This document shows, in pieces, positions 32,844 through 64,000 of a DNA stretch of 64,000 bases (within the stretch, counting starts at the first letter, position 1; every line of letters begins with the position of its first letter). Under the pieces are notes generated by a model, which was not told where the DNA came from, did no database searches, and saw only the letters and a list, made by a program, of their open reading frames with translations. Source of the stretch: Bacteroidia bacterium (lineage in GTDB: Bacteria > Bacteroidota > Bacteroidia > 2-12-FULL-35-15); NCBI GenBank assembly GCA_016786925.1, contig JAEUTU010000124.1:800-64799 (forward strand), in the 5' to 3' direction. The position numbers and the translations under genes are program-made.

Positions 32844-33556
32844 ACGTTTTTCAAGATTTTCCCCAAAATTAACAGTCGTTCCGAAAAAAACATTTTTTTT
32901 CTCAAAATTTTGATCAAAAAGTAGAAGAAAAGCCCGAATCAAGCACTGTTATTGCGCTTCAGGGCGTGTGTTTTTTATTTGATTTGAGCCGTTTTTTCTG
33001 CTTTTTAATGTCACAACACTACAGAGGGGTGTTTGTTCGTTAAATCGACCGAAAACGCGTTTCGCCTACCGTTTTTCGAACGAAATGATCAATTTAGATT
33101 TCCGAAGAGTATTTTTGGTTTTTCCTCTTTGAAAATTCCTTTTTTGAGAAAGAATAATTTCCCGGATAAAAGATCCTGCTTGTTCGCTTTTTCGAAAATC
33201 AAAAACCCGGGGTGCTTAAGATCTTCATTTTTTGCGAAAATTTTTATGTAAGAAATTAATTTCGGGTAATGTTTTTTCACTCCTTTTTTCGCCCTTTTTT
33301 ACTTTTAAAATTTTGCCTGATAACAAACAAAATATTCTATGCTTAATTTTGTCTATAATTTTTTTATCCAATTTACCGGAATTATTCTCCCCGTTTTCTT
33401 GTTCTGAACATTAAATTGGGAATTATATTTTCATGCTTTCTTTTTGATCAATAAAAATCTGCTGAAATAAATTCTGCAATATTTGATCCTGAAGTGAAGT
33501 ATAGAAATATTTATTCGGGATATTATTTAATCAGTTTTAATTCCAAATTTTTAAAT

Positions 33557-33572
33557 TGTTCCATGTGGAACA
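33557..33572. promoter_or_regulatory. Palindromic motif tGTTCCATGTGGAACa (copy 1 of 4)
   Basis: This is a 14-bp dyad, GTTCCAYRTGGAAC. The other copies are at 33737-33750, 34558-34571 and 34612-34625. Confidence 0.5.
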
Positions 33573-33610
33573 TTCAAGTTGAATATTCAAATTCTTACCA
33601 AAAATTAGTC

Positions 33611-33656
33611 AATAAAAAAGCCGGTAGAAAATTCTACCGGCTCCAATTATTTTTTG
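33611..33656. terminator. Bidirectional rho-independent terminator 3' of the methyltransferase gene
   Basis: AATAAAAAA-GCCGGTAGAAAATTCTACCGGC-TCCAATTATTTTTT forms a hairpin flanked by A- and T-runs. Confidence 0.7.
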
Positions 33657-33661
33657 ATTTT

Positions 33662-34543
33662 CTATTTTCGAATTAAATAGATCTGGCTGGAATATGTTTT
33701 ACCGGATCTCATTGCAGACATATTAGATCGAAGTCCGTTCCACGTGGAACGTATAATATTAGTCTTCCCGGTTTTGATCTTTTCGCTGAGCATTGAAACA
33801 TAAAACGAATCGAATATCATTGGCAATATTCTAAAAACTTTCATTTCATACTTCTTAAATAATGAGTCAATGTCTTTGGGAATAAAATGGTATAAGTGAC
33901 GAGGAACATCATAAGCTGCCCAATGCTCTTTATATATTTTCGCATCCAAAGAAGAACAGTTAGGTACCGCAATAATGATCACCCCATTCGGTTTAATTAA
34001 TCTCTTTAATTCCTGAACTCGTTCATTTAAATTAGGTACATGTTCTAAAACATGCCACATAGAAATAATATCAAAACTCTCATCTTTTAAGTTGGCCAAT
34101 TCCGATTCTTCCAAAACATTTAAACCATAATTATCGATCGCCATTTTTCTTGCATCAGCATCCGGTTCAATTCCGGTTGTATTCCATTTAGCATTTTTAC
34201 ATGTATTCAAGAACTCACCTGTTCCACATCCAATATCCAAAATAGATCCTGTTTTATAAAACTTAGAAATCAGTTGAAGCTTCTTTAATAAAGTATATTT
34301 TCGAACGGTTTGATAGGTTGAATTAATAAATCCTTTTTTGGTGTTAGAGTGAGAAACATATTCCTCCGACTTATAATACTTTCCTAATTGGTTTGATTCC
34401 GGTCTAGGGTTTGTAAACTTAAATCCACACGAACCACATTCGACAATGTTAAATGTTTCACGTGAAACAGTATGGTCGGTGCAGACCATAAATGGTTTCA
34501 ATTGAATAGAATTACAAATAGGACAATTTTCTAATTTTTCCAT
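33662..34543 (-). CDS. Class I SAM-dependent methyltransferase with N-terminal zinc-ribbon
   Basis: The N-terminus has CPICNS ... CGSCGF, and the SAM motif I is LDIGCGTGEF. Confidence 0.75.
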   Translation of the reverse strand: MEKLENCPICNSIQLKPFMVCTDHTVSRETFNIVECGSCGFKFTNPRPESNQLGKYYKSEEYVSHSNTKKGFINSTYQTVRKYTLLKKLQLISKFYKTGSILDIGCGTGEFLNTCKNAKWNTTGIEPDADARKMAIDNYGLNVLEESELANLKDESFDIISMWHVLEHVPNLNERVQELKRLIKPNGVIIIAVPNCSSLDAKIYKEHWAAYDVPRHLYHFIPKDIDSLFKKYEMKVFRILPMIFDSFYVSMLSEKIKTGKTNIIRSTWNGLRSNMSAMRSGKTYSSQIYLIRK

Positions 34544-34557
34544 TTTACTTAAATATG

Positions 34558-34571
34558 TTCCACATGGAACA
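34558..34571. promoter_or_regulatory. Palindromic motif GTTCCACATGGAAC (copy 3), 14 bp upstream of the methyltransferase start codon
   Basis: This is the exact reverse complement of copy 1. The position fits an operator or promoter-proximal site. Confidence 0.5.
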
Positions 34572-34624
34572 TTATATATATGTATACCATTTTATTTATT
34601 CCAACGTATTTGTTTCACGTGGAA

Positions 34625-36529
34625 CTATCTACCCAGATAAACCATTAATATAGAAATATCCGAAGGAGTAATTCCGGAGATTCTAGATGCTTGACCAATT
34701 GTTCTTGGTTTGATCTTAGTCAACTTTTCTCTGGCTTCAGCTGATAAAGATGTTAGTCGTTTGTAATCAAAATCATCATGTAGAACGATGTCTTCTAAAC
34801 GAGTTAACTTATCTGCCATCTCATTCTCTTTAGAAATGTATCCCTCATACTTCATTAATATCTCTGCCTGTTCAATGCTCTCCATATCATAGTTAGAAAT
34901 AAATTCTTTTACTTTAGGTGAGTTCAAAGCAAAGTCTAATAATGTAATCGTGGGACGTGTTAACACTCCAAACATTTTTACCTTTTGAGTAATAGGAGAG
35001 GAGCCAATAATTTCTAAAGCAGGATTTATTTCAGAAGGATCGATACTCTCATTCTTGAAGTACTTAATAATGTCCTGGGCATTCTTTTGCTTTTGATTAA
35101 CTCTTTCCAATCTTTCTTTTGAAGCAAGTCCTAATTCATACGACTTAGGAGTTAGACGGATATCTGCATTATCCTGGCGTAATAAAATTCTATATTCAGC
35201 TCTTGAAGTAAACATACGATATGGTTCTTCTGTACCCTTTGTTACAAGATCGTCAATTAAAACTCCAATGTATGCTTCTGAACGTTGTAGAATAAATGGC
35301 TCCTTTTTATTGATCTTTAAGTGTGCATTGATGCCCGCCATTAATCCCTGACAAGCTGCTTCTTCATATCCTGTTGTTCCATTTATCTGGCCGGCAAAAT
35401 ATAAATTCTCCACCAACTTTGTTTCTAATGTTAGATCTAATTGTTGAGGAGGAAAATAATCGTATTCAATAGCATAGCCAGGACGAAACATTTTTACATT
35501 CTCAAATCCCGGAACTTTTTTCAATGCCATATATTGAACATCTTCAGGTAAAGAAGTACTGAATCCATTCACATAAATTTCTACCGTATTCCAACCTTCC
35601 GGTTCAACAAAAATTTGATGTCTGTTACGTTCAGAAAAACGGGTAATCTTATCTTCAATACTTGGACAATATCTCGGACCTAATCCTTGAATTCTTCCGG
35701 TAAACATCGGAGACTTTTCAAAACCGGTTCTTAAAATATCATGAACTTCATCATTGGTGTAAGTAATGTAGCAAGGCAACTGTCCATGCGGACCGTTCAC
35801 AAATGCATCCGATCTTTTCTTTCTAAATTCAAATTGTTCAACATCCAGGTAAGAAAATTTATATGGATTTTCATCACCATGTTGAACTTCCATTTTAGAA
35901 TAATCTAATGATCTTCCATCCACACGGGGAGGAGTTCCCGTTTTCATTCTGCCGGCTTCAAATCCTAACTGAATTAATTGTTCAGTAATTCCGGTTGCAG
36001 CCTTTTCACCTGCACGTCCACCACCATATTGTTTTTCACCTAAGTGAATAACACCATTTAAAAAAGTACCATTGGTTAAAACAACTGCCTTGGCTCTTAT
36101 CTCGATATCCATTCCGGTAATAACACCGCAAACTTTTCCATTCTCTACAATAAGTCCTTTCACCATATCCTGCCAAAAGTCAAGATTAGGAGTATTCTCT
36201 AACATCACTCTCCATTCCTCAGCAAAACGATGACGGTCACTTTGAGCGCGTGGACTCCACATAGCTGGACCCTTTGACATATTCAACATACGGAATTGTA
36301 CTGCAGTACGATCTGTTACAATACCGGAATAACCACCAATAGCATCTATTTCACGAACGATCTGTCCTTTTGCAATGCCTCCCATAGCTGGATTACAACT
36401 CATTTGAGCGATCGTCTGCATATTCATAGTGATCAATAGGGTAGAAGATCCCATGTTAGCAGCAGCAGCAGCAGCTTCACAACCGGCATGACCGGCACCA
36501 ACAACAATTACATCGTATTCTTTAAACAT
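34625..36529 (-). CDS. mnmG: tRNA uridine-5-carboxymethylaminomethyl(34) synthesis enzyme MnmG (GidA)
   Basis: 634 aa with an N-terminal FAD-binding [10 protein letters not shown] motif, and recognisably MnmG throughout. Confidence 0.9.
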
Positions 36530-36723: not shown

Positions 36724-37710
36724 TTATAATCCAAATTGAGCCGATAATTCTAACATTTTCTCAATTGGTCTACGAGCATCCTTAATTAACTTTTCATCCA
36801 TAATAATCTCCGGTTGCTCGTATTTTAAACAGTTATATAACTTTTCCAGTGTGTTTAACTTCATGTGTGGACAATCATTACAAGCACAGGTATTATTTGG
36901 TGGTGCAGGAATAAAAGTCTTTCCTGGATTCTTCAATTGCATTTGATGAATAATACCCGCTTCGGTAGCAACAATAAATTCAGTAGCATCCGATTTAGTA
37001 GCAAAATTCAATATACCTGTTGTACTACCTATATAATCTGCGATATCCAGTAAATTCGCTTCACATTCGGGATGAGCTAATAAAAGAGCTTTAGGATGTT
37101 TATTCTTCAATTGAATGATCTTTTCCAAAGAGAAGATCTCATGAACCATACAGGCACCATCCCACAATACCATATCACGACCCGTTTTTTTCTTGATATA
37201 AGCACCCAAGTTCTTATCAGGAGCAAATATGATCTTTTGTTCCTTAGGAAGGCTCTCAACGATCTGTAATGCGTTTGTTGAAGTACAAACAATATCGGTA
37301 TGAACTTTTAATTCAGCCGTACAATTAATGTAAGAGATCACTAAATGATCGGGATATTGTTTTTTAAATTCAGCAAATTTATCGGCCGGACAAGAATCAG
37401 CCAATGAACATCCTGCTTTAAGATCGGGTAAAAGAACTTTTTTATTAGGAGAAAGGATCTTCGCTGTTTCAGCCATAAAATGCACTCCGGCAAAAACAAT
37501 GATATCCGCATCGGTTTTAGCAGCCTGTTGCGATAAACCTAAACTATCACCAATATAATCAGCAATATCCTGAATATCGGCATCCTGATAATAGTGGGCA
37601 AGTATGATCGCATTTTTTTCCTTTTTTAATTTATTGATCTCAGCGAACAAATCTAGTGATAAATCAATTGGAATATCCAAAAAACCTTTTGTCTGCAAGT
37701 CGTTAACCAT
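36724..37710 (-). CDS. nadA: Quinolinate synthase NadA
   Basis: 328 aa containing ILAHYYQ, the cysteine ligands and the threefold NadA repeat pattern. Confidence 0.85.
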
Positions 37711-38250
37711 ATCAATAAATAATAAATATTTTAATTTAAAATAAAATTGTTGTTGTTATTGGTCTGTTAGTCTGTTGTAAAAAATGTTCATTAAAAACTT
37801 GTTCTATTCAGTTATAAAAGTTCATTAACAAGTATTCAAACTTTATTATTTTATAAACGATTGAATAATAGATAATTCATACTTTATCAACACATTGTTG
37901 ATAGTGTTATTATCTAATAAATTTTTTGCAAAAGTACGTTTAATTCTGTTATAAAACTGTTGATTGATTGTATAAAATACTGATAAGTTTAAATAGGAAG
38001 TATCAAAAATTAATACAAGCAACATTATAATTTAACAAAGCAAGAAAAATCTTCTACACATTTATAACAAAAGCTTTTATTTTCAACAGGTTTCATGTTA
38101 ATAAAATAAAAACTAGAGCCTTAATTATCAGCGCTTTATTTTTGAACTTTACAAACGTGTTAATTGTGGTTAATAACCCTGGTTTGACACAGCTAAAAAT
38201 AAAAATTTTCGCGGGCTACGCCCGATATTAACATTTATATATAAGGAACT

Positions 38251-55594: not shown

Positions 55595-58018
55595 TTAAAA
55601 TTTATAGCTGTAACCCAAACGGATTACTTGTGTTTCGTAATAGTCGGCACTTGTATAAGAAAATCCGTTGCCTTGAATTTCTTTTTTGATAACCATTGTA
55701 TTTAACAGGTCGTTGGCGTTTAAAAACAATTCGCCTTTTCCTTTTTGTATAGATTTTTTAAGTCCTAAATCCAACGAAAAACGCTGTCCGATTTTTCCTT
55801 GCGGAATAATGTCGGGTGCTAAATAAACTGCCGTTACTTGCAATTCAAAGTTTTTCGGCAGATGAAAATTGTTGTTCAGTTTTACGTTGCCCGAAAAAAT
55901 GGTTTGCTTGTTTGCCGAAAAAGTATGCGGAACAGGATACAAATTTTCAACCGTGAAAGCATCAATTTGATTGTAATAAGCATTTGCGTTGATGTTGAAC
56001 GAATACCATTTTGCTATGTCTTGATTCAACACAATTTCCAAACCTGTATTGTGGCTTTTACCTGCATTTTGAAATATGGCGTAAATCAAATTGCTATTAG
56101 GCACAATGGTTGAAATTCGTGTGATTGTTGCATTTGCAAAACGATAATAGGCTGCCGAATAAAAATAACCGCTTTTCCAACTTGTTTTGTAACCTAATTC
56201 AAATGAGTTTGTAAACTGTGGTCGCAATGCAGGGTTGCCGACTTTAATAATTTCTGCATCATCGTATTTCGGGAAAATGCGAATGTCCACTTCGTTTGGT
56301 CTGTCCACTCTGCGGTTGTAAAACAATGACAATTTATTTCTGTCATTGATTTTGTAAGCCAAACGAAAATTTGGAAACGGTTGTATGTAATCATATCCGT
56401 CACTTGTGTAAGTGTTGTGATTTGGATTTACTTTGTAATCTATTTTTACATATTCTACTCGCAAACCTAATTCGGCTTCCCACTTTTCATTTTCAAAAAC
56501 GTAGTTTCCGTATAATGCAGGAATAACTTCGTTGTAAGTTGCCCAGCCGCCTGCATTGGTGTCTAACACCGAATTTGCACCTGCTTGAAAATCCATATTC
56601 GTTGGAATGTTTCTGTATCGGAATTTCACGCCTGTTTCAATTCGCCCGTATTTCAAAGGTTTGATGTAATCAACATTGAAATCATAAACCTGTTCGTCTG
56701 ACAACAATTTAAAAGCGTCCGTTCCTGTTGAAGTCGGCAAATAATTATCGTAAAAATATTTTTCATCTTCTCTGTGAAATGTATAATTGAAACCAACATT
56801 CAACAAATGTCCTGCTTGCTTGAATTTGTGCTGATACATTGCCGAAGCCATTGCCGTTGTTTTCAATTCGTCTTCCAAAAACTGCCACAAACGAAGTCGG
56901 GTTGATAAATCCGAATTGAAAAAAGGTTGGTCGCCTCTGTCAATTATTTTTTCGCTTCCGAATAAACCCGAAACGGTTAATGTATTTTTTTCATTAATAT
57001 ACCAATCAATTCCCGCTTTTGAAGTGAAATAATTGGTGTTGCGGTTTCGCTTTAATTGTTGTCTGATAATAGTTCCGTCATCGTAAGTTCGGGTTACAAA
57101 TTCGTTTTTGTCAAGTGTGTGTTTGTATAAATTATCGGCTTGAAAAAACGCATTTACTTTTCCTTTTCTGTAATTGAAAGAAATGGACGGATTGACTTTT
57201 GGCGTAAAAGTGTATTGCGGTCTTATCGTAGGCAAATTTTCTTTACGCACCCACAAAGCCCCTAAACCTGTTGTAAAACTAACCTTTCCGTTAAATCCCT
57301 CTTGTTTGTTTTTCTTCATTATGATATTGATAATTCCTGCGTTGCCGTTAGCATCGTATTTTGAGGACGGATTATTTATGATTTCAATGCGTTCAATAGA
57401 AGATGCAGGAATGTTGTCTAAACCTGTTTGATTGCCGAAACCTGTCATTGCCGTTTGTTTGCCGTCAATCAGTATAGTTACTTTATCGTTGCCACGAAGT
57501 TGCACTTTATTATCCTGCACCGTAACACCGGGCAGGTTTTGCATTGTTTGCAAAACAGAGCCTCCGCCTTGACTAATATTGTCTTCAACGGAATACGTTT
57601 TTTTATCCATTTTTCCACTTACATTATCAACTTTTGCAGTAACCACAACTTCGTTCAGTGTTTGTGTTTCCTCTTCCAATTCAATAGTTGCCACATTCAG
57701 AAATTCTGAAAGATTACCAACAAAAAGTGTTTGCTTTTTTGTAACGTAACCGATGTAAGAAATTTCCAAAAAATAATTGTTGGGTTTAATGCCCGCAAGC
57801 GTAAATCTTCCCTCATCATCTGTAACCGTTCCTGTTACAAATGCACTGTCTTTTTCTGTTTTCAAAACAATATTTACAAACGGCAAAGCCGATTTGTCTT
57901 TCTTGTCTTTTACAATGCCCGAAAGTGTAACCGATGATGTTTGAGCAAAAGAAACGCTGATTGAAAGTAAGAGCAACGCTTTGATTAAAAGCGTTGCTCT
58001 TAAAAAATTATTAGTCAT
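55595..58018 (-). CDS. TonB-dependent outer-membrane receptor with N-terminal carboxypeptidase-regulatory-like domain
   Basis: A signal peptide is followed by a CarbopepD_reg-like beta-sandwich (LSGIVKDKKDKSALPFVNIVL), a plug domain and a long beta-barrel ending in the aromatic residue F. Confidence 0.85.
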   Translation of the reverse strand: MTNNFLRATLLIKALLLLSISVSFAQTSSVTLSGIVKDKKDKSALPFVNIVLKTEKDSAFVTGTVTDDEGRFTLAGIKPNNYFLEISYIGYVTKKQTLFVGNLSEFLNVATIELEEETQTLNEVVVTAKVDNVSGKMDKKTYSVEDNISQGGGSVLQTMQNLPGVTVQDNKVQLRGNDKVTILIDGKQTAMTGFGNQTGLDNIPASSIERIEIINNPSSKYDANGNAGIINIIMKKNKQEGFNGKVSFTTGLGALWVRKENLPTIRPQYTFTPKVNPSISFNYRKGKVNAFFQADNLYKHTLDKNEFVTRTYDDGTIIRQQLKRNRNTNYFTSKAGIDWYINEKNTLTVSGLFGSEKIIDRGDQPFFNSDLSTRLRLWQFLEDELKTTAMASAMYQHKFKQAGHLLNVGFNYTFHREDEKYFYDNYLPTSTGTDAFKLLSDEQVYDFNVDYIKPLKYGRIETGVKFRYRNIPTNMDFQAGANSVLDTNAGGWATYNEVIPALYGNYVFENEKWEAELGLRVEYVKIDYKVNPNHNTYTSDGYDYIQPFPNFRLAYKINDRNKLSLFYNRRVDRPNEVDIRIFPKYDDAEIIKVGNPALRPQFTNSFELGYKTSWKSGYFYSAAYYRFANATITRISTIVPNSNLIYAIFQNAGKSHNTGLEIVLNQDIAKWYSFNINANAYYNQIDAFTVENLYPVPHTFSANKQTIFSGNVKLNNNFHLPKNFELQVTAVYLAPDIIPQGKIGQRFSLDLGLKKSIQKGKGELFLNANDLLNTMVIKKEIQGNGFSYTSADYYETQVIRLGYSYKF

Positions 58019-58446
58019 TACTCTTTTACTTCTTTAATGAAATTTCCGTTGCTGTCAAAAATCAGGTCTTTGCCTTTGATTTCTGCTTCGTAAGTAACAA
58101 CGCCTTTGCTGTCGGTAATTTTTGCAGTTTCTTTGATTTTTTGCCCTGCATAGTTTTTAGAAACATACTCTTTCGCTTTTGCAGGAAGTTCATCAATTTT
58201 GATTTCCACTTCTGTTTCAAGAATGTTTCCCGAAACGTCAATCAAAAGTGAATAATCCGTTTCATTAACTTCAAATTCCGCTTCGTAGTTGGCTTTTTCT
58301 TTTTCCCACTTAATTTCTTTTGCGTTAGGATAACTTTTTTGCAAAGTGTTTTTTACAACTGTCGGAACTTCTTTGTCCGAAACTTTTTGTGCGTTGGCGA
58401 ATGATACTGCGAACATTGCACCTAACAAGATTGCTGATTTCTTCAT
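58018..58446 (-). CDS. PepSY-like domain periplasmic protein
   Basis: A signal peptide is followed by two PepSY-like half-domains. This family commonly accompanies Bacteroidota two-component systems. Confidence 0.55.
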   Translation of the reverse strand: MKKSAILLGAMFAVSFANAQKVSDKEVPTVVKNTLQKSYPNAKEIKWEKEKANYEAEFEVNETDYSLLIDVSGNILETEVEIKIDELPAKAKEYVSKNYAGQKIKETAKITDSKGVVTYEAEIKGKDLIFDSNGNFIKEVKE

Positions 58447-58502
58447 TGCTTTTGTATTTTAAAATTTACAAGGGCAAAGGTGAAAACCGAATTAGAAGAA
58501 AA

Positions 58503-59798
58503 TTAGAATTTTACAGCAAACGAATGAAAATTGTTTTCAAAAGCGTAATTTATTTTCCATTGATAGCGGTTGCAAATTTCTTTTACGATTGCTAAACCTA
58601 AACCGCTGTTGGTGGTTTGTGAAGATGAAACAGCAAAGCGTTCAAATAGTTTTTCGTTGTTCAATGGTGTTTTTCCTGTGTTGGAAACGGTTAGTGTTTT
58701 GTCCGAAAAACTGATTTGTATTTTTCCTTGTTCGGTGTTGTGAATAATAGCATTGATAAGCAAATTATTGACAAGAATTTCAAGCAAAGTTTTGTTGCAA
58801 GTAAGGGTTAGTTTTTCGGAAAGGTTTTTATCAATGGTAATTTGTTTTGTTGTGGTGTAATCAATCAACAATTCAAGCGTTTCGTTTATTATTTCGGTCA
58901 ATTCAATGGTCTCAATTTCTGCAAATTGGTTGTTTTCAATTTTTGCCAACAGCAACAAGTTTTTATTTATTCTTGTCATTCGGGAAAGCGGTAAATCAAT
59001 CGCAGTCAATAATTCCGCTTGTTCGCTTGTAATGTTTTTGTTTTGCAACAACAAATTCAACTTTGATTTTAGAACTGCCAAAGGTGTTTGTAATTCGTGA
59101 GAAGCATTTTCAATAAATGTTTTTTGTTGGCTGTAAACAGAAATGTTTTTATCAATCAATTTTTGCAACGACTGATTGAGTTCCGCAAATTCTTCAATAT
59201 CTGTCTTGTCAAATGAAACGGTTTGCTGTGTAGTCAAATCAAACGATTTTAATTTTTCAAGTGTGTTGCGGAAAGGTCGCCAAATTTGTTTGGCTATCTG
59301 TCTGTTTAGAAGTATAAAACCGATAACCAACAATGCAAAAAATAAAAGTGTTACAACCGCAATCGCAAACATTGTTTCGTCTGTTTCTTCTACATTGGTT
59401 TCAATTTGTAAATGATATAGTTTTCCGTTAATGTTGATGTAAGATGAAAGCACCCTAAAACGGTCAATCTCGTTATGTTCAACATATCTGTTTTGTTTTG
59501 TAATAGTATAGGTGCTGTCAGGCTTTGGAACGGATAAATCGATTGGTGTTAGTATGGTGCTGGGTTGTAACTTGTCCCAATTTTTAATCAAACTATTCAA
59601 TTCGCTTTCTTCTATTTGAGTATTATTAAAACTGTTTTCAATTCGTTCCTTAACAATTTGGTTGTGTTCGTCCAATTCATCAAGCCAAATAAAATCTACT
59701 ACCAAATAATAAACAGGTATGCTACACGCTAAAATAATTAAGGCATAAATCGTAAATGCTTTGAATGGTTTGTGTAACAGCTTGCTCATATTTCCCAT
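58503..59798 (-). CDS. Sensor histidine kinase
   Basis: Two TM helices flank a periplasmic loop. The H-box is ASHELQTPL, and the HATPase G2 box is NTGKTP ... GLGLAIVKEI. Confidence 0.85.
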   Translation of the reverse strand: MGNMSKLLHKPFKAFTIYALIILACSIPVYYLVVDFIWLDELDEHNQIVKERIENSFNNTQIEESELNSLIKNWDKLQPSTILTPIDLSVPKPDSTYTITKQNRYVEHNEIDRFRVLSSYININGKLYHLQIETNVEETDETMFAIAVVTLLFFALLVIGFILLNRQIAKQIWRPFRNTLEKLKSFDLTTQQTVSFDKTDIEEFAELNQSLQKLIDKNISVYSQQKTFIENASHELQTPLAVLKSKLNLLLQNKNITSEQAELLTAIDLPLSRMTRINKNLLLLAKIENNQFAEIETIELTEIINETLELLIDYTTTKQITIDKNLSEKLTLTCNKTLLEILVNNLLINAIIHNTEQGKIQISFSDKTLTVSNTGKTPLNNEKLFERFAVSSSQTTNSGLGLAIVKEICNRYQWKINYAFENNFHSFAVKF

Positions 59799-60460
59799 TT
59801 GTAACCTGTTCCGTAAATTGTTTTTATGTAGTTGTTGTAACCCGCTTCTGTCAATTTCTTTTTCAGGTTTTTAACGTGAGCATAAACGAAATCGTGATTG
59901 TCAAACATATCGGCAATGTCGCCCGACAAATGCTCTGCCAATGCACTTTTTGAAATAACACGATTTTTGTTTCCGATGAAAAAAAGCAATAAATCAATTT
60001 CCTTTTTTGTCAATGAAATTTCAATGTCATTCACTTTTACGGTCTTGCCTAACAAGTCAATCGTTATTTCGTTTTGTTGAACAATGTTTGAACTGTTGAA
60101 TTGTTTCCTGCGAATAAGAGAATGTATTCTTGCCGAAAGTTCCGAATGATGAAAAGGCTTTGCCAAATAATCGTCCGCACCAATTTGTAAACCTTTTACT
60201 TTGTCCTCAATAGAATTTTTTGCGGAAATAATAATTACTCCGTCTTGCTTGTTTTCTCGTTTTAACTGTTCTAACAAAGCAAGTCCGTTTCCGTCAGGAA
60301 GCATTAAATCCAATAAAATACAGTCGTATTGATAAACAGCAATTTTATCAGTTGCTTGATTGTAGTTTTCAGCAACTTCACACACATAGTTTTGTCCCGA
60401 CAAGTATTTTACAATGTCCTGTGCAAGTTCTTTTTCATCTTCTACAATCAAGATTTTCAT
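59786..60460 (-). CDS. OmpR-family response regulator (receiver + winged-helix)
   Basis: The receiver domain is MKILIVEDE ... LLDLMLPDGNG, and the C-terminal trans-reg winged helix ends YGTGYKW. It overlaps the HK gene. Confidence 0.85.
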   Translation of the reverse strand: MKILIVEDEKELAQDIVKYLSGQNYVCEVAENYNQATDKIAVYQYDCILLDLMLPDGNGLALLEQLKRENKQDGVIIISAKNSIEDKVKGLQIGADDYLAKPFHHSELSARIHSLIRRKQFNSSNIVQQNEITIDLLGKTVKVNDIEISLTKKEIDLLLFFIGNKNRVISKSALAEHLSGDIADMFDNHDFVYAHVKNLKKKLTEAGYNNYIKTIYGTGYKWEI

Positions 60461-61090
60461 TCGCCAAATTTACAATTTGAATTTTGAAGAAATTTAGAAT
60501 GTCCGTAAAAGTTGCGTTGGGATTGGCTCTTTTGCAAACTTTGGGTGGTGGGTGGGCTTGGTGCGGTTTGCAAATGTGCCAATGTGCGTTGGCTTAAAAC
60601 TTCATTTTTTTTGTGCGTTGGGAAAAATAAAAATACAAAAGTGTCGGTTGTCGTGTCGGAAATGTCGGTCGGTGTGTTGTCGGGTTTTGGTCGGTCGGTT
60701 GATGTCTGCACGGTGGTCGGTTAGGGTTGCCGATAACGGTTCTCAGCTATACGCAGGCAGGGCATTTTACCACTAAACTTCCTACGAAGAACTGAACTTT
60801 AAATTTAGCGCTTTTCTGTCCTACGAAGCACGAAACCCCTGCTTGCGTATAGGTGATGTTATGCCCTGGCGTTCCTGTCGTCCGTGTCTCAAAACCCTTG
60901 TCAATATTGAGCTTTGCAACCAACTGTCCGAATGTTTTTGTGTCGGTTTGTGTGTTGGCGTTTTTAAAATTTTTAGAAGGGAAGGGGATTTTTAATTTTT
61001 TCTTTTCAGCGTGGAACAGGCATACTCTTTGGCAAGCTTTGGTTTGCGTGTCGGCTTGCGGGGCTTGCCAATGTGTATGACTGTAGAGGG
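60461..61090 (+). repeat. GT-rich non-coding repeat, copy B (about 1.5 units; 630 bp with no credible ORF)
   Basis: 60770-61090 aligns block-for-block with copy A. 60500-60760 contains an extra TTGCAAATGTGCC block and a long GTCGG-rich tract (GTGTCGGTTGTCGTGTCGGAAATGTCGGTCGGTG ... ). Confidence 0.7.
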
Positions 61091-61096
61091 TTGGCA

Positions 61097-61711
61097 TTAG
61101 AACAAACTTCGTTGATTGTATTCAATCCAATTTAAAGGTTCTCCCTGTACACCATATTGGTATTTGTTAGTAATCATTTCCACAAACTCTTCTGCCAACT
61201 CATTATCTTTTATAGTTATGTAGTTTCGCTGTTTAGAGTTAGGACACAAACTCAAGTATTTTTCTGGAACTTTCATGTGGTTATTTCCTAAATAAATAAA
61301 ACAATCAGAAATTAAAACAAATTTACCGCTCAAATCTTGTTTTAGATTTGCTTCGTTCAATCCACCATCATAGAAACTATGGTGAGAATCCATTTGACAC
61401 CAATGGTCATTTTCTATGTAGTAAATATTATCTCCATGAATTTGCTTTAAACTACCATTCATAATAGGTTTCTTTCTCACAAATCTTTTATCGTTCCAAT
61501 AATCTTCAAAACTTATTTTTTCAGAAACTTTCATTACGAAAATCAGATTGTAAAGCAAGTGGTTTTCTATTGAACCAGTTCCAATAATCCAGTCACCCAC
61601 TTCCGCTTTAGCTCGGATATGTGGTTTGCAACAAGCTAAAGTACAAAACCCAAAAAATGGGTTAGGAGCGAAGCCATAGTCACGAGTTATTTTATATGAA
61701 TAAAAAGCCAT
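61097..61711 (-). CDS. Nmad2-like (nucleotide-modification-associated domain 2) protein, tentative
   Basis: The N-terminal YSYKITRDYGFAPNPFFGFCTLACCKPHIRAKAEVGDWIIGTGS closely resembles the signature I associate with the Nmad2 family. Its start overlaps the TIR gene stop (ATG/TAA sharing 1 nt). Confidence 0.45.
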   Translation of the reverse strand: MAFYSYKITRDYGFAPNPFFGFCTLACCKPHIRAKAEVGDWIIGTGSIENHLLYNLIFVMKVSEKISFEDYWNDKRFVRKKPIMNGSLKQIHGDNIYYIENDHWCQMDSHHSFYDGGLNEANLKQDLSGKFVLISDCFIYLGNNHMKVPEKYLSLCPNSKQRNYITIKDNELAEEFVEMITNKYQYGVQGEPLNWIEYNQRSLF

Positions 61712-62202
61712 TATTGACAGCCGATTCTTTTTACATTGTTTGTAGGTGTTCTCGGCTGTCCTCCTGAATTACACCAACCTACGTCCTCTCCTTCTAGTCC
61801 TGCAATTATTTTTTCAGAATTCCAACCAACTAATCCGTCACCAAATTTTTCAAGTGCTTCTGGAATATCCGAGTCTTTTGCTCCCTGCATAAAAACGCCT
61901 AAGATTCTTTTGCCTTGTCTTTCTGCTTCTTCTATTTCCCAGTTCACCCATTCTCTTGAATGAGTTTGTGAACCTACAAGGACAACTACCGTCCCAGCAA
62001 ATTTCATCTTCATTCTTAATAAACGTTCCAGTGTTTTTCTTGGTATTTGCTTTTTTTCTAAGCGGTCTTTGTTTTTGTCATTTACCCTTATAGAGCTGTT
62101 TCTAATATTATAGTCTTTGCCAGCTAAAAGGTTGGTAAAATCAGATACTGCTTTATCATCTTTGTGATGGTGGCTTATAAAAACATTTTTTGATGTGCTC
62201 AT
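61711..62202 (-). CDS. TIR-like domain protein (DUF1863 / ThsB-type)
   Basis: The N-terminus is NVFISHHHKDD, and the conserved catalytic-region motif is SREWVNWEIEEAERQGKRILGVF. At 163 aa the size is typical of stand-alone ThsB-like TIR proteins. Confidence 0.75.
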   Translation of the reverse strand: MSTSKNVFISHHHKDDKAVSDFTNLLAGKDYNIRNSSIRVNDKNKDRLEKKQIPRKTLERLLRMKMKFAGTVVVLVGSQTHSREWVNWEIEEAERQGKRILGVFMQGAKDSDIPEALEKFGDGLVGWNSEKIIAGLEGEDVGWCNSGGQPRTPTNNVKRIGCQ

Positions 62203-62205
62203 AAT

Positions 62206-63228
62206 CTATTTAATTAAGTTATTAATGTTCCACTTTGGCGGAAAATATAATTCGATTGATTCTTTTTCTTTGCCAGTAAATTTTTGTTTAATCCTTGTTC
62301 TATGTGAATAGTCGTCTATTTCAGGGTGTGCGACCCTTGCATATTTACCTACCTCACAAAAAATATTTTGACAATCTATTAATTGCAAATTTCTACCCCA
62401 TAAATTTTTAAAGTCAAGGTTCAATCTTTCAAATTCTGTTTCCTGATTGTCTGCCATAAATTTTATTATATCTTCAAACGAATAGCCGCCAAAATCTTTA
62501 AAGCATTTTAAAATTCCATCCCTTGCTCCAGGACCAGCTTTTACAAATTCCATTTCACTAAAATTTGTGAGTGTGCTGTAATTGATGTCTGTTACAAATT
62601 GATAAGCTAAAAAATCCCCAATTGTAGAGTAAGAATGCAAAAGAGTATATGCCTCATTCATGCTTTTACAATGTTGAAGTTTGTAAGGCACTTTATCTTT
62701 TATCATCAATTCTATTAGTCGTAAATGGTTTTGATGTTTTCTTTCATAACCAAAACTTGACCTGCCTGACGCCATAATGTATGCAGCAGAGTAAATCGGA
62801 ATTCTGTTTTGCATCACTTCTGAAAGAACCTTGTCATACCGTTTGAATGAATAATCTTTGAAACTTATTTTTCCTAACTCGTATTCTAAAACTTCCCATG
62901 TGGAAATACGATTGAAGATTTTAAAAAGTAATAACCGAAAAAAAACTTCTTCAGGTTTTTGACTGCCTTTGTATATAACGTTCTTAATGAGATACTGGCT
63001 AACTCTATCAGTTGCTCGGTATACATTGGTGAACTTGTATTGGCCAAGAATTTTGTCTTTTGTCCAAGGAGAATCTTCTCTATTGAATCGTTTGAAAAAA
63101 ATATTCTGTCTCTCTGCTGCAAACTTCCAGTAAGTGTTGTAAACCACACTCAATTTTGGTTTGGTTTTCTTTGTCAGTATGAGAACTGATTTTTGCTTGT
63201 CATATTTATTTTGTGCTACTCTTTGCAT
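62206..63228 (-). CDS. Putative DNA-base-hypermodification family protein (aGPT-Pplase-like), tentative
   Basis: The N-terminal WKFAAERQNIFFKR ... SPWTKDKILGQYKFTNVYRATDRVSQYL matches the W.F..ER..I ... PWT.D.IL..YKFTNVYR..DR signature I recall for alpha-glutamyl/putrescinyl-thymine pyrophosphorylase-type proteins. It lies 3 bp from the downstream gene and 2 bp from the upstream gene. Confidence 0.4.
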   Translation of the reverse strand: MQRVAQNKYDKQKSVLILTKKTKPKLSVVYNTYWKFAAERQNIFFKRFNREDSPWTKDKILGQYKFTNVYRATDRVSQYLIKNVIYKGSQKPEEVFFRLLLFKIFNRISTWEVLEYELGKISFKDYSFKRYDKVLSEVMQNRIPIYSAAYIMASGRSSFGYERKHQNHLRLIELMIKDKVPYKLQHCKSMNEAYTLLHSYSTIGDFLAYQFVTDINYSTLTNFSEMEFVKAGPGARDGILKCFKDFGGYSFEDIIKFMADNQETEFERLNLDFKNLWGRNLQLIDCQNIFCEVGKYARVAHPEIDDYSHRTRIKQKFTGKEKESIELYFPPKWNINNLIK

Positions 63229-63230
63229 AA

Positions 63231-64000
63231 TTATTTCGTGAAGCAGTTTGTAAGTCCTTTTAAAATCAGATAAACCACTTCGCTTATATGTGGGGTAATT
63301 GTTAATCGTAAGTTTTCTTCTTCGGAAAGTCCATTTTGATCTGCTATTCCTTTTAGTCCGATTGATTGTAATTTTATAAGGTATTTTTTGTAGTCAATGG
63401 AATTATCAGGATGTTTATCGTTATAAATATCAGTCATGTTTTTGTAGTCAGCATTTCCAAAATAAAATTCTTCTGAAAAACTTTCGGGTTGATTTCCTTT
63501 CAATGCTTCAATTGCTTCTCTTGTTATTCCACCAAAAGCACCAACTAAATAAACAGGATGCTTTTGTTCTAGTGCAATTAAGAGTTCTTCTAAAACTCCT
63601 GGGCATTTTCCTTTGAACTTTCGCATAGCACCTCCAATGAAAATTCTTGCATCACAAGTGATTTCCATTTCTTCTCTCATTTTTGTCAAGCATCTTGACC
63701 ATTGATAAAGATTTTCAGGAGTAGTTTTCTCAAACAGCTCTTTTGCTTCACTAATTTTTATATCAGATGGTGGAGATACTTTAATAAAAGAAACATTTTG
63801 AATTAATGCGGCTTGCTGTTTGTCTTCCAATGTTGTTGAAATCGGATAAGCTAAGTAGCTATAAAATCTTTCATTTGGTTGAAGAGTTTTATCGGCTTTG
63901 TAATAAGCTAATAAATCAAATATCAACTCTGTAAACCCTCTTGATCGCATATCTCCTCCATAAACCAATTTTCCTCCTGTAGCTACAATGTATCTTGCAA
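63231..64000 (-). CDS. SLOG/LOG-like Rossmann-fold domain protein (5' end beyond window edge)
   Basis: The ORF is open to the window end. The translation KLVYGGDMRSRGF ... IFIGGAMRK ... CPGVLEELLIALEQKHPVYLVGAFGGITREAIEAL follows the LOG/SLOG order (VyGGg..G.Mg ... PGG.GTLEEL ... KPVvl). Family assignment is by motif only. Confidence 0.5.
   Translation of the reverse strand, partial: ARYIVATGGKLVYGGDMRSRGFTELIFDLLAYYKADKTLQPNERFYSYLAYPISTTLEDKQQAALIQNVSFIKVSPPSDIKISEAKELFEKTTPENLYQWSRCLTKMREEMEITCDARIFIGGAMRKFKGKCPGVLEELLIALEQKHPVYLVGAFGGITREAIEALKGNQPESFSEEFYFGNADYKNMTDIYNDKHPDNSIDYKKYLIKLQSIGLKGIADQNGLSEEENLRLTITPHISEVVYLILKGLTNCFTK

Follow-up and report, generated by a model that had tools for sequence, protein, structure and literature searches.

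A mobile bacterial operon that joins TIR and SLOG proteins to deoxypyrimidine-nucleotide enzymes, a probable relative of the anti-phage system DS-4

Towards the end of a 64,000-nt stretch of DNA from a Bacteroidia bacterium (the whole of which is called the window here), a TIR protein and a SLOG protein are encoded together with two proteins from families of nucleotide and DNA-base modification, which raises the question of what such a combination might do and whether it has been described before. An earlier note, made from the letters alone, had seen in it the joining of TIR and SLOG parts to thymidine-hypermodification families, and this holds; the operon family ties TIR immune signalling to enzymes that act on modified building blocks of DNA. 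The most probable reading is a defence system built on TIR signalling whose effector works on deoxypyrimidine nucleotides; the chemistry of that effector we infer.

The operon and its borders

The visible part of the locus consists of the following features; the four reading frames proposed in the earlier note were all found in place.

61014..61096, minus strand: hairpin element just 3′ of the Nmad2 stop codon, delimited by the similarity limit and RNA folding
61097..61711, minus strand: Nmad2 gene, 204 aa
61711..62202, minus strand: ThsB-type TIR gene, 163 aa
62206..63228, minus strand: HMUDK_hel gene, 340 aa
63231..64000, minus strand: SLOG cluster-2 gene, 3′ part, coding for the last 256 of about 321 residues

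The genes are as tightly coupled as had been noted (2 bp, 3 bp and −1 bp), the measured junctions being gaps of 2 nt and 3 nt and a 1-nt overlap (TAATG) of the ThsB stop and the Nmad2 start. The GC content, said before to be several points low, is 0.332 for the operon versus 0.387 for the window, with only 0.8 % of equal-sized windows being as low; the flank visible within the window encodes a two-component system and a TonB-dependent receptor. On inspection, the SLOG frame runs to the window end without a stop, and because the match to Pfam PF18163 begins at profile position 45, the N-terminus of the protein is missing; when the fragment is aligned to the 321-aa orthologue of the related locus L094, its first residue falls on A67.

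The missing part of the operon was deduced from 11 related loci of Bacteroidota and Leptospira in which the order (ThsB)–MazG·MazG_C–TIR_2–SLOG2–HMUDK_hel–ThsB–Nmad2 is kept, L094 being the closest of them. Judging from these, about 66 SLOG residues and two or three genes (TIR_2, MazG–MazG_C and often another ThsB) probably lie beyond the edge, and the four genes in the window are the final ones of a conserved mobile operon of six to seven genes, not the four-gene operon first proposed. Nucleotide identity to L094 is 86.5 % over 61014–63998 and the flank differs; similarity to both L094 and a further locus, L003, stops at 61014, and the element at 61014..61096 lies at the border of this mobile block. 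The other genomic context of the L094 operon and this limit bear out the earlier hint of horizontal acquisition. The arms of the hairpin (61016–61037 and 61063–61084) form a 22-nt inverted repeat with 86 % complementarity, the RNAalifold consensus of which has 20 base pairs at −23 kcal/mol, and in L003 one compensatory change (G–C to U–A) leaves the pairing fully intact; a T-tract terminator was searched for at this hairpin and not detected.

The proteins of the visible part

Pfam profiles upheld all four domain calls made earlier (Nmad2, TIR, aGPT-Pplase, SLOG). The TIR protein matches ThsB_TIR (PF08937, E = 1.5e-21), the PADLOC ThsB model PDLC00418 over its full length (E = 9.6e-52) and ThsB1 in the PDB (9b7d, E = 6e-7); the motif W85-V-x-x-E89, whose E89 is, going by the TIR motif, presumably the catalytic glutamate, is shared by 95 % or more of the 27 ThsBs from such operons. 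Conserved predicted catalytic residues are, besides E89, TIR_2 E256 and MazG E35/E62/E63/D66. Nmad2 (PF18753, E = 2.7e-64) has D11, G13, A15-P-N-P-F19, C23, C28, R33 and H111 as invariant residues. Its AF2 model (pLDDT 89, pTM 0.86) places it in a predicted PUA-like fold (EVE/ASCH/YTH) as found in modified-base readers, these families being ranked top by Foldseek, though with E ≥ 0.02; among 50,697 phage records no Nmad2 was found.

The SLOG protein matches SLOG cluster 2 (LD_cluster2, PF18163, E = 4.7e-63, profile positions 45–264 of 264) and, more weakly, STALD (E = 2.7e-5), and it has conserved Gly-rich loops (YGGD.R..G, GG, GxxxG..EE and G..GG). Full-length orthologues are 321 aa long, with LD_cluster2 over residues 34–298, and contain neither SIR2 nor another effector domain; the SIR2 domain that was not visible in the window is missing from the N-terminal part of these orthologues as well.

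The fourth protein matches HMUDK_hel (PF18723, E = 5.5e-113, residues 28–305) and is a stand-alone helical domain without a P-loop kinase domain. In JGI annotations the family still goes by the name [quoted passage not shown], so the label aGPT-Pplase is an older name of HMUDK_hel (aGPT-Pplase1). More than 8000 homologues exist, the best 120 of which are 73–100 % identical; identity between phyla is 47–60 %, unusually high for an immune gene. D285-C286-Q-N-x-F-C291-E292 and C242 are invariant across 92 members of the family, kinase fusions among them; the predicted structure is a low-confidence model. Homologues of HMUDK_hel are present in 456 phage records, among them ViI-, M6- and SP10-type phages, from groups reported to have hypermodified thymidine (PMC8989533); these homologues are only 23–33 % identical. 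The phage 5-HMUDK phosphorylates 5-hmdU in DNA (PMC8989533), and phosphorylation of 5hmU in template DNA is reported to turn off transcription in vitro (PMC6457204).

Three modules with separate histories

As far as sequences can tell, three modules are defined by gene fusions and co-inheritance. Module A comprises HMUDK_hel and an NTP-processing or predicted-kinase partner, which is MazG·MazG_C in the window's operon, dCTP-deaminase/dUTPase-like plus MazG_C in some relatives and thymidylate-synthase-like plus dNMP kinase in DS-4; it is a deoxypyrimidine-nucleotide module. All HMUDK_hel partners over 36 loci are nucleotide enzymes (MazG, DCD/dUTPase-like, thymidylate-synthase-like, dNMP/thymidylate kinase, radical SAM), and one-protein fusions are known of HMUDK_hel with MazG and MazG_C (L020, L077) and with Thymidylate_kin (L032, L043 and the viral contig L084). 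Module B is the translationally coupled pair of ThsB-type TIR and Nmad2, which is exchanged as a cassette, and module C consists of a 393-aa TIR protein (TIR_2) and the SLOG cluster-2 protein, the two being fused in L074.

The identities of ThsB and Nmad2 co-vary (Spearman 0.77) and are uncoupled from those of HMUDK_hel (ThsB −0.13, Nmad2 0.06), which fits a swappable sensor pair. Across the 36 loci, ThsB–Nmad2 is present in 17 and HTH-ImmA/IrrE in 13; because the two never co-occur, they may be alternative control modules on the same HMUDK_hel core. SLOG2 identity rises and falls with that of HMUDK_hel (rho 0.82) and runs counter to that of ThsB (rho −0.59), and thus carries no signature of a ThsB-signal/SLOG-receptor pair. 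The reading first given, that the TIR protein makes a signal sensed by SLOG, finds no backing in these correlations, and a whole subgroup of operons, group B (MazG_C–HMUDK_hel–ThsB–Nmad2), is devoid of TIR_2–SLOG2; there the ThsB output must have another target, or there is no signalling.

The operon is carried on chromosomes or plasmids of bacteria with a patchy distribution, and integrase or transposase remnants and conjugative plasmids are signs of its mobility. Neighbours in related loci include extra ThsB/TIR genes (ThsB paralogues may form arrays of two to four), ThsA, a retron RT with PRTase, pAgo, GmrSD and a ScoMcrA-like HNH protein. Some loci lie amid housekeeping genes, L096 being placed between rpoZ and rpsL.

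Relation to DS-4

DS-4 (“NTTI”) of E. coli, shown by experiment to act against phage (DeWeirdt et al., DefensePredictor, Science 2026, PMC13092281), has the gene order TS–dNMP kinase–HMUDK_hel–TIR–Nmad2, and it protects E. coli MG1655 on its own. The only phenotype found in the part of that source available was a weak one on lambda (−log EOP 0.93, about 9-fold fewer and small plaques), and searches of its main text turned up no discussion of the mechanism. The window protein and its DS-4 counterpart are 31 % identical for HMUDK_hel (DS-4 gene 3, E = 6e-33), 51 % for TIR (E = 5e-52) and 54 % for the NMAD protein (E = 5e-53). To our knowledge lambda DNA has no hypermodified bases, and a “modified-base sensor” is therefore not required by the DS-4 data.

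The HMUDK_hel–TIR–Nmad2 tail (DS-4 genes 3–5) has the same order in both, with proteins of nearly equal size (HMUDK_hel 340 aa, TIR 163 aa, Nmad2 220 versus 204 aa), and in both it is joined to deoxypyrimidine-nucleotide enzymes. The first DS-4 genes encode a thymidylate-synthase-like protein and a dNMP kinase; the window family begins with MazG·MazG_C (or DCD plus MazG_C) and has, unlike DS-4, an inserted TIR_2–SLOG2 pair and often an additional ThsB; experimental protection is known for DS-4 only, the MazG/SLOG variant being known from sequence. That the operon is a defence system and a relative of DS-4 we regard as very probable.

Possible mode of action

As a whole, the locus is best explained as a mobile anti-phage operon of the DS-4 family in which modules A, B and C act together, a reading to which we give an even chance; the specific signalling wiring and effector chemistry are put forward only tentatively. 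Nmad2 would bind a base, nucleotide or nucleic-acid cue arising on infection and then license ThsB to turn NAD+ into a signal derived from ADP-ribose; SLOG2 would bind this or a related ligand and activate TIR_2 as an NADase, mirroring the SIR2–SLOG protein ThsA; and module A may alter the deoxypyrimidine pool, or phosphorylate or modify 5-substituted uracil in DNA, whereby phage DNA synthesis or expression would be blocked. In favour of this explanation are the conserved interleaved gene order, the fusions, the homology to DS-4, the defence-gene neighbours and signs of mobility, and the conserved catalytic residues; precedents are the effector proposed for type VIII Thoeris and the action of phage 5-HMUDK on 5-hmdU. 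The conservation of HMUDK_hel across phyla, the housekeeping surroundings of some loci, the weak DS-4 phenotype, the lack of co-variation of ThsB with SLOG2 and the make-up of group B speak against it.

It is also conceivable, if unlikely, that no second messenger is involved and that all six proteins work one after another on a pyrimidine (deoxy)nucleotide: a (d)NTP would be converted to the monophosphate by MazG or DCD, HMUDK_hel and MazG_C would modify or phosphorylate the base, Nmad2 would bind or process the modified base, and TIR and SLOG would be N-glycosidases on the nucleotide (like LOG and DNPH1-type enzymes) and not on NAD+; a toxic or signalling base or nucleotide would be made, or a phage-specific nucleotide such as 5-hm-dUTP destroyed. 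The uniform nature of the HMUDK_hel partners would suit such a pathway, as would the high sequence conservation, which is expected of small-molecule enzymes, the absence of SLOG2 from group B and the family names (“nucleotide modification associated domain”), which echo an earlier prediction; TIR, SLOG and deoxyribosyltransferase-like folds also form one clade of domains that bind nucleotides or cleave N-glycosidic bonds (PMC9503650). Further, a thymidylate-synthase-like gene and ThsB–Nmad2 are almost mutually exclusive (together in 2 of 36 loci), and ThsB–Nmad2 could therefore stand in for a chemical step rather than be a regulator. However, ThsB is a TIR protein of the usual Thoeris type (with a full-length PADLOC match, and listed as Thoeris__ThsB_Global in the table on DS-4), its paralogue arrays resemble Thoeris sensor TIRs, and the ThsB–Nmad2 cassette shuffles apart from the enzymes it would feed, which is unusual for consecutive steps. 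We know of no bacterial TIR protein acting on non-NAD nucleotides.

Less probable still are two adjacent, independent systems, a DS-4-like core (MazG_C–HMUDK_hel–ThsB–Nmad2) and a Thoeris-like unit (ThsB(s)–TIR_2–SLOG2), with island and promoter in common. Clustering of defence systems is common, group B and DS-4 exist or function without TIR_2–SLOG2, and in five loci (L014, L015, L090, L093, L095) this pair forms its own block with extra ThsBs beside the core; yet in the window lineage it sits between MazG_C and HMUDK_hel, which are fused elsewhere, the interleaved order is preserved from Bacteroidota to Leptospira, SLOG2 is co-inherited with HMUDK_hel, and no TIR_2–SLOG2 pair without HMUDK_hel was seen in searches not anchored on SLOG2. 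There is only a slight chance that the role of the operon is to place or read a hypermodified pyrimidine in host DNA (epigenetic or R-M-like, with Nmad2 as reader) or to clean up non-canonical dNTPs as a housekeeping function, as the phage HMUDK_hel homologues from thymidine-hypermodification clusters, the NCBI label “putative DNA base hypermodification protein” on some members and the position of L096 amid ribosomal genes might suggest; MazG-type enzymes are classic house-cleaning pyrophosphatases. But operons of the window type lack a hydroxymethylase, an aGPT-Pplase2 transferase and a P-loop kinase, their distribution is patchy and mobile with low GC and defence-gene neighbours, and the DS-4 relative protects against phage when moved alone into E. 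coli MG1655; nor do we know of a role of TIR proteins in DNA marking.

Comparison with known systems

With type I Thoeris (ThsB TIR plus the SIR2–SLOG protein ThsA), the window and its family have in common a ThsB-family TIR with the presumed catalytic Glu, a SLOG protein that weakly matches STALD, several ThsB paralogues at some loci and defence-island neighbours. The SLOG protein differs from ThsA in lacking SIR2 and belonging to cluster 2 (the PADLOC ThsA model gives only E = 4e-4 to 1e-5); its partner is a TIR and not a sirtuin protein, three more nucleotide-handling proteins are present, and ThsB and SLOG2 do not co-vary. Type III Thoeris, consisting of the SLOG protein ThcA and several ThcB TIR proteins (van den Berg et al. 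2024), resembles the family in its small SLOG-only protein and several TIR proteins; the NCBIfam equivalog scores are 19.7 bits for ThcA (cut-off 110) and 35.4 for ThcB4 (cut-off 220), and the part of the type III description available mentions no HMUDK_hel, MazG or Nmad2. Identity with type I or type III was rejected on these grounds: SIR2 is absent, the SLOG is of cluster 2 and not STALD, and the ThcA and ThcB4 models stay far below cut-off. For type VIII Thoeris a nucleotide-hydrolase effector has been proposed.

Phage thymidine hypermodification employs a 5-hmdU DNA kinase and the aGPT-Pplase2 amino-acid:DNA transferase (Lee et al. 2018 and 2021, PMC8989533). The HMUDK_hel/aGPT-Pplase1 family is common to both, the kinase-fused form occurs in relatives, and TS-like, dUTPase/MazG-like and radical-SAM enzymes are associated likewise; the HMUDK_hel protein of the window has no kinase domain, and its operon, unlike the phage pathway, has no aGPT-Pplase2, PLP enzyme or hydroxymethylase; it is bacterial and joined to TIR, SLOG and Nmad2, the last being absent from phages. 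Modification-dependent (type IV) restriction enzymes (VcaM4I, McrB-N, PD-T4-3) also have PUA-like reader domains, and Nmad2 neighbours include GmrSD and ScoMcrA-like SBD-HNH proteins; there the reader is fused to a nuclease, whereas Nmad2 is a separate protein coupled to TIR, with no sequence-level membership in the type IV reader families of Pfam and with Cys23, Cys28 and His111 as invariant residues.

Finally, citing Burroughs et al. 2015 (NAR 43:10633), DeWeirdt 2026 (Fig. 6F, S12) lists MazG, MazG-C (“predicted nucleotide kinase”), dUTPase, aGPT-Pplase and NMAD combinations as predicted defence systems of which “none have been experimentally validated” (PMC13092281); these computational predictions use the same domain vocabulary as the window operon and its relatives. 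The earlier view that the combination is undescribed thus does not stand for the HMUDK_hel–TIR–Nmad2 triad, which is homologous to DS-4, nor for the MazG/aGPT-Pplase/NMAD variants already predicted; what may be new is the arrangement bearing both MazG and SLOG2.

Genes of the window operon

The part of the operon that lies in the window comprises four genes:

61097–61711, minus strand, Nmad2 gene (Pfam E = 2.7e-64)
61711–62202, minus strand, ThsB-type TIR gene (Pfam ThsB_TIR, PF08937, E = 1.5e-21; PADLOC ThsB E = 9.6e-52)
62206–63228, minus strand, HMUDK_hel gene (Pfam PF18723, E = 5.5e-113)
63231 to past the window end, frame open, minus strand, 3′ part of a SLOG cluster 2 gene (SLOG2; Pfam E = 4.7e-63, profile positions 45–264 of 264)

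ORF calls bear out the four co-oriented, tightly joined frames that an earlier note had read from the sequence: ThsB and Nmad2 overlap by 1 nt (TAATG), HMUDK_hel and ThsB are separated by 3 nt, SLOG2 and HMUDK_hel by 2 nt. All four domain readings made there were right, as the HMM search gave strong single-family assignments and no unrelated families; the label aGPT-Pplase is the older name of the HMUDK_hel family, since PF18723 members are still called [quoted passage not shown] elsewhere. The Pfam match of the window HMUDK_hel protein is confined to HMUDK_hel (residues 28–305 of 340). Proteins of the window are 100 % identical to JNL24_14160 and JNL24_14170 of the MAG “Bacteroidia bacterium”. 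The suspected low GC content is real (0.332 for the operon vs 0.387 for the window; 0.8 % of same-size windows are equally low). Further low-GC stretches (0.31–0.34) occur in the composition profile at 33001–35000, 37001–38000 and 58001–60000, the last of which spans the histidine-kinase and response-regulator genes adjoining the operon.

The full operon in relatives and its mobility

L094, the nearest accessible relative, is 86.5 % identical in nucleotide sequence to window positions 61014–63998, and gene lengths and spacings agree.

Gene order in L094
ThsB, 180 aa
MazG·MazG_C, 294 aa
TIR_2 (a second TIR protein), 393 aa
SLOG2, 321 aa
HMUDK_hel, 340 aa
ThsB, 163 aa
Nmad2, 204 aa

The “four-gene operon” thus stands as four coupled genes; as an operon it is cut by the window edge and is larger, with six or seven genes, in relatives. 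The upstream genes of the window copy (SLOG2 N-terminus, TIR_2, MazG·MazG_C) are presumably those of L094 and other relatives; against the 321-aa orthologue, the window SLOG2 lacks the first ~66 residues. The order MazG_C-TIR_2-SLOG2-HMUDK_hel-ThsB-Nmad2 is also found in Flavobacterium sp. SUN046 (L001), in Leptospira santarosai (L091) and in eight more genome or metagenome loci (L002–L005, L007, L008, L010, L070), and the gene neighbourhood is accordingly conserved in Bacteroidota and Leptospira. In L002, L003 and L005, the MazG domain has apparently given way to a dCTP-deaminase/dUTPase-like (DCD) protein encoded on its own, after which comes a protein with MazG_C only (the four DCD matches were ascribed to ORFs of these loci by deduction); the annotation of Myroides odoratus has the same arrangement. 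The full SLOG2 orthologue consists of LD_cluster2 alone (residues 34–298 of 321); the domain search found no SIR2, TM, macro or nuclease domain in it, so the statement that no SIR2 is visible in the window holds and extends to the complete protein.

Similarity of the window to L094 and to L003 ends at 61014, past which the flanks are unrelated. Relatives are located beside integrase or transposase remnants and on plasmids, conjugative ones included; one in Mucilaginibacter is placed between rpoZ and rpsL. The similarity break, the varied contexts and the low GC support the earlier hint that the operon was acquired horizontally. Among 144 flanking ORFs from 14 loci are extra ThsB/TIR genes, a bona fide ThsA, a retron RT with PRTase, and pAgo, and the Pedobacter locus L090 is flanked by GmrSD; the genes around the operon show a mobile and often defence-island context. 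In L001, four co-oriented genes (4313–6665) lie directly upstream of the six-gene operon; two encode ThsB_TIR proteins, and the other two encode proteins of 221 and 182 aa without family match. Downstream of the operon are a SLFN-g3-helicase/AAA protein and a MazG-like gene.

Modules and cassette exchange

HMUDK_hel, MazG and MazG_C form a single polypeptide in L020 and L077, as do TIR_2 and SLOG2 in L074; because they are fused in relatives, these proteins are functional partners. Together with the ThsB-Nmad2 pair, this shows a three-module build: HMUDK_hel with MazG·MazG_C, ThsB with Nmad2, and TIR_2 with SLOG2.

ThsB and Nmad2 are always neighbours and translationally coupled. Across 24 loci, which are related by kinship so that the statistics are descriptive only, ThsB and Nmad2 identities to the window correlate (Spearman 0.77), those of ThsB and HMUDK_hel do not (−0.13). 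SLOG2 identity tracks that of HMUDK_hel (Spearman 0.82, likewise descriptive only, the loci not being phylogenetically independent). Two loci illustrate this: L003 is 87 % identical to the window in HMUDK_hel and 83 % in SLOG2, and 35 % in ThsB and 47 % in Nmad2; the Pedobacter locus L090 has 60 % in HMUDK_hel and 30 % in SLOG2, and 80 % in ThsB and 63 % in Nmad2. Since ThsB and Nmad2 co-vary and are uncoupled from HMUDK_hel, they form a cassette that is exchanged while the backbone around it is more stable.

The wider HMUDK_hel family

A survey of metagenomes anchored on HMUDK_hel was grouped by HMUDK_hel identity to the window. Group A (at least ~72 %) has the interleaved six-gene form; Group B (66–70 %) has MazG_C-HMUDK_hel-ThsB-Nmad2, with TIR_2-SLOG2 missing or downstream; Group C (55–62 %) is without TIR in most loci and has the order HTH, ImmA/IrrE peptidase, thymidylate-synthase (TS)-like protein, (DCD), (P-loop kinase), HMUDK_hel, then MazG·MazG_C or a second TS-like protein. 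Co-occurrence was counted in 36 non-redundant loci that extend 3.5 kb or more to each side: ThsB-Nmad2 is present in 17 and ImmA in 13, never both (0/36); TS-like genes are present in 20, together with ThsB-Nmad2 in only two. Comparison of the variants yields testable modules: the constant core would be HMUDK_hel together with a kinase or NTPase, ThsB-Nmad2 would be an interchangeable cassette for sensing or control, one that does not occur with HTH-ImmA/IrrE, and TIR_2-SLOG2 would be an optional add-on.

There are additional variants, some of them on plasmids. A TIR-less sister operon (HTH, ImmA/IrrE metallopeptidase, TS-like protein, HMUDK_hel, MazG-like pyrophosphohydrolase) is found on conjugative plasmids of Allocoleopsis (L098, 5819–9914) and Sinorhizobium fredii (L099, 5775–10074), with VapBC, an integrase and an “ABC-three component system” as neighbours; its HTH-ImmA pair resembles switches of the CapH/CapP type, by which some defence operons are controlled. 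A Parabacteroides distasonis plasmid (L100, 6835–11477) has TIR-Nmad2-HMUDK_hel-radical SAM and a 521-aa hypothetical protein, adjoined by an integrase; radical SAM enzymes are also present in phage thymidine hypermodification clusters. The extended form in Runella limosa (L095, 445–10357) reads MazG_C-HMUDK_hel-ThsB-Nmad2-ThsB-TIR_2-SLOG2-TIR_2, followed by an 884-aa protein without Pfam matches and a patatin-like phospholipase, which could be an additional effector; an rve_3 transposase fragment lies alongside. Judged by the gene neighbours across Groups A–C and the plasmid variants, HMUDK_hel is always found among deoxypyrimidine-nucleotide enzymes.

HMUDK_hel identity is 73–100 % among the best 120 of >8000 matches, those with a named source being from Bacteroidota, and still 47–60 % between Bacteroidota and Cyanobacteria, Alphaproteobacteria (Rhizobia) and Actinobacteria. 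Such extreme conservation in a mobile or defence setting suggests that the substrate, a small molecule or DNA, is under tight constraint. Phage homologues of HMUDK_hel (456 records, 23–33 % identity) include those of ViI-like, M6-like and SP10-like phages; Nmad2 had no match in 50,697 phage records.

Structures and conserved residues

The Nmad2 model (pLDDT 89) is a beta-barrel of the PUA-like superfamily (EVE/ASCH/YTH), and Foldseek again placed PUA-like families on top, at E of at least 0.02.

Fold comparison of the Nmad2 model (structure, score)
YTHDC1, 7.8
EVE protein 2ar1, 7.6
VcaM4I, 6.5
ASCH, 6.4
McrB N-domain with m5C DNA, 6.0
THYN1 with 5mC DNA, 5.6
PD-T4-3 (5hmC-specific), 4.2

The PUA-like fold, moderately supported by these comparisons, suggests a concrete ligand class, and Nmad2 is a putative binder of a (modified) base or nucleotide; this reading gains some support from the modification-dependent nucleases that neighbour it, namely GmrSD and a ScoMcrA-like SBD-HNH protein. 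Invariant aromatic and Cys/His residues are present in Nmad2. In Adhaeribacter arboris (L097, 8697–10612), Nmad2 is accompanied neither by HMUDK_hel nor by a recognisable TIR; it lies directly 3′ of a gene for a ScoMcrA-like DNA-SBD plus HNH nuclease and a 102-aa ORF, and HigB-like and Zeta-toxin-like genes are nearby.

ThsB E89, which we take from the TIR motif to be the catalytic Glu, is conserved in no less than 95 % of the 27 operon ThsB proteins compared; E256 of TIR_2 and the MazG metal ligands E35, E62, E63 and D66 are conserved as well. LOG-type catalytic SLOG enzymes have GGGxGxMG and PGGxGTxxE motifs with catalytic Arg and Glu; the invariant loops of SLOG2 (Y-G-G-D-x-R-x-x-G and G-x-x-G-G-x-T, plus E203-E204, L094 numbering) are akin to these motifs and yet unlike them. 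In HMUDK_hel, C242 and D285-C-Q-N-x-F-C291-E292 are invariant among 92 clade-1 sequences, C286 included; C291-E292 and C286 may be set beside the essential active-site Cys, with neighbouring Glu, of the aGPT-Pplase clade 2 amino-acid:DNA transferases (PMC8989533). The HMUDK_hel model has a pLDDT of 64, coming from a shallow alignment (73–100 % identity), and its matches to HhH glycosylases (EndoIII/MutY/AlkA-type), whose fold has been predicted for aGPT-Pplases, are enriched but weak. Sequence searches of the PDB gave no match for HMUDK_hel and Nmad2 (single sequences and profile) and marginal ThsA matches or none for SLOG2.

The 3′ hairpin and the adjoining spacer

The 83 bp past the Nmad2 stop codon (61014–61096) form a long hairpin which is kept in L094 and L003, one pair with a fully kept compensatory change; in L003, with its other type of ThsB-Nmad2 cassette, the hairpin is better conserved than the adjoining Nmad2 gene. 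It could be a terminator without T-tract, or a boundary for cassette exchange. Between it and the response-regulator gene lies a GC-rich spacer of 0.55 kb (60461–61013; GC 0.45 over 60461–61096 vs 0.39 in the window) with GTCGG/TGTCGG-rich direct repeats and two long inverted repeats (60743–60762/60837–60856, 20 nt, 90 % complementary; 60522–60539/60566–60583, 18 nt). The spacer has no convincing coding frame, and the 0.64 kb between the response-regulator gene and Nmad2 contain no significant Rfam match and no pattern of a sigma-70 promoter or of a T-tract terminator. The spacer could represent an ncRNA, a MITE-like element or a gene in decay.

Possible function

The model we prefer, by inference, is one of sensor, NADase and nucleotide effector. 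ThsB and Nmad2 would be a pair for sensing and signal generation, SLOG2 with TIR_2 would be a ligand-gated, ThsA-like NADase, and HMUDK_hel with MazG·MazG_C (TS and kinase in DS-4, an anti-phage system of E. coli) would be an effector with deoxypyrimidine nucleotides or, within DNA, 5-substituted uracil as its target. The mutual exclusion of ThsB-Nmad2 and HTH-ImmA/IrrE fits alternative control modules for the same HMUDK_hel core. Base phosphorylation is a concrete candidate chemistry because a kinase, real or predicted, is the constant partner of HMUDK_hel and because 5hmU phosphorylation in template DNA is reported to turn transcription off in vitro (PMC6457204). As a tentative proposal, on balance a doubtful one, Nmad2, with its PUA-like fold, might read a base or nucleotide that is modified or unusual and might gate ThsB, TIR-SLOG might amplify, and HMUDK_hel with MazG·MazG_C might rewrite the deoxypyrimidine pool or DNA bases. 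The output would in that reading go beyond membrane or NAD+ killing, for example to the phosphorylation or destruction of 5-substituted dU.

Several findings speak against the signalling part: SLOG2 and ThsB do not co-vary, Group B is without SLOG2, HMUDK_hel is unusually conserved for an immune gene, and the DS-4 target is lambda, whose DNA to our knowledge has no hypermodified bases. A defence aimed only at hmU phages was considered and downgraded, lambda being the recorded target of DS-4. The main rival to the signalling model is a pathway of enzymes alone, with TIR and SLOG as nucleotide N-glycosidases; the common ancestry of TIR, SLOG and deoxyribosyltransferase-like folds speaks for it (PMC9503650), and we consider this pathway possible, if somewhat improbable. 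A second rival, in which a DS-4-like operon would house TIR_2-SLOG2 as a Thoeris-like unit in its own right, appears decidedly unlikely; Group B, where the pair is missing or downstream, speaks for it, and the tracking of HMUDK_hel by SLOG2 speaks against it.

Should the tentative proposal with Nmad2 as reader be true, the operon would be an immune pathway based on TIR signalling and of a hitherto undescribed kind, phage-hypermodification-type nucleobase chemistry would join the effector repertoire of bacterial immunity, and the Nmad2, MazG_C and aGPT-Pplase clade 1 families would obtain a first function. If pyrimidine nucleotides or DNA bases are indeed what the effector acts on, bacteria would turn the phages' own hypermodification chemistry against them, through a TIR pathway with a nucleotide-chemistry output.

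Comparison with known systems

Type I Thoeris shares with the window operon a ThsB-family TIR with conserved E89; however, the operon is without the ThsA-type SIR2-STALD fusion, its SLOG protein being LD_cluster2 alone. Type I was rejected because no SIR2 was found in the operon, in the window or in full-length relatives, and because full-length SLOG2 scores weakly against STALD (27.6 bits) and ThsA (PADLOC E = 1.3e-5, over ~90 residues). Type III was rejected on NCBIfam scores far below cut-off (NF058525, ThcA, 19.7 bits vs 110; NF058526, ThcB4, 35.4 vs 220). PADLOC has no models for Nmad2, HMUDK_hel, MazG_C and DCD; the check proposed earlier gave a full match for ThsB and only weak ThsA/TIR matches for SLOG2 and TIR_2. 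The families of the operon are unmentioned in the text and supplements of a large survey of Thoeris and TIR systems (Yirmiya et al. 2025). Unlike the phage 5-hmdU DNA kinase (5-HMUDK), the window HMUDK_hel has no P-loop thymidylate-kinase-like domain; the fusion, which is the architecture behind the Pfam family name, is found in L032, L043 and L084.

As judged from sequence, the closest known system is DS-4 (“NTTI”), an E. coli operon for thymidylate synthase, adenylate/dNMP kinase, HMUDK_hel (340 aa), TIR (163 aa) and Nmad2 (220 aa), which was cloned in MG1655 and is counted among the validated systems (DeWeirdt et al. 2026, PMC13092281); Table S7 of that paper gives a phenotype for it with lambda (−log10 EOP = 0.93, smaller plaques). 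The window HMUDK_hel, ThsB and Nmad2 are 31 % (6e-33), 51 % (5e-52) and 54 % (5e-53) identical to genes 3–5 of DS-4 in BLASTP, and are adjacent, co-oriented and in the same order, which places the window operon in the DS-4 family; the combination, which the earlier note did not recognise as a described system, is not unknown as far as this triad goes. DS-4 differs upstream, where it has the TS-like and dNMP-kinase genes, whereas L094 and ten other window-type loci have SLOG2, TIR_2 and MazG·MazG_C, and no TS or P-loop kinase upstream. The same paper also depicts, among its predicted systems, some with aGPT-Pplase, MazG, MazG-C (“predicted nucleotide kinase”), dUTPase and NMAD, several of which it credits to predictions by Burroughs et al. 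(PMC13092281).

The present analysis adds the full architecture with its variants, the fusion-based module map, the exchange of the ThsB-Nmad2 cassette, its exclusion pattern with ImmA and TS, the PUA-like Nmad2 fold and the conserved 3′ hairpin. The earlier observation is real and its domain reading right; the combination is a truncated copy of a MazG/TIR-SLOG variant, itself a putative defence system, of a recently validated defence family, which is among the few such systems made of enzymes otherwise known from phage DNA hypermodification. This variant, widespread in Bacteroidota and present in Leptospira, adds a TIR-SLOG pair to DS-4 and has MazG·MazG_C in place of TS and kinase.
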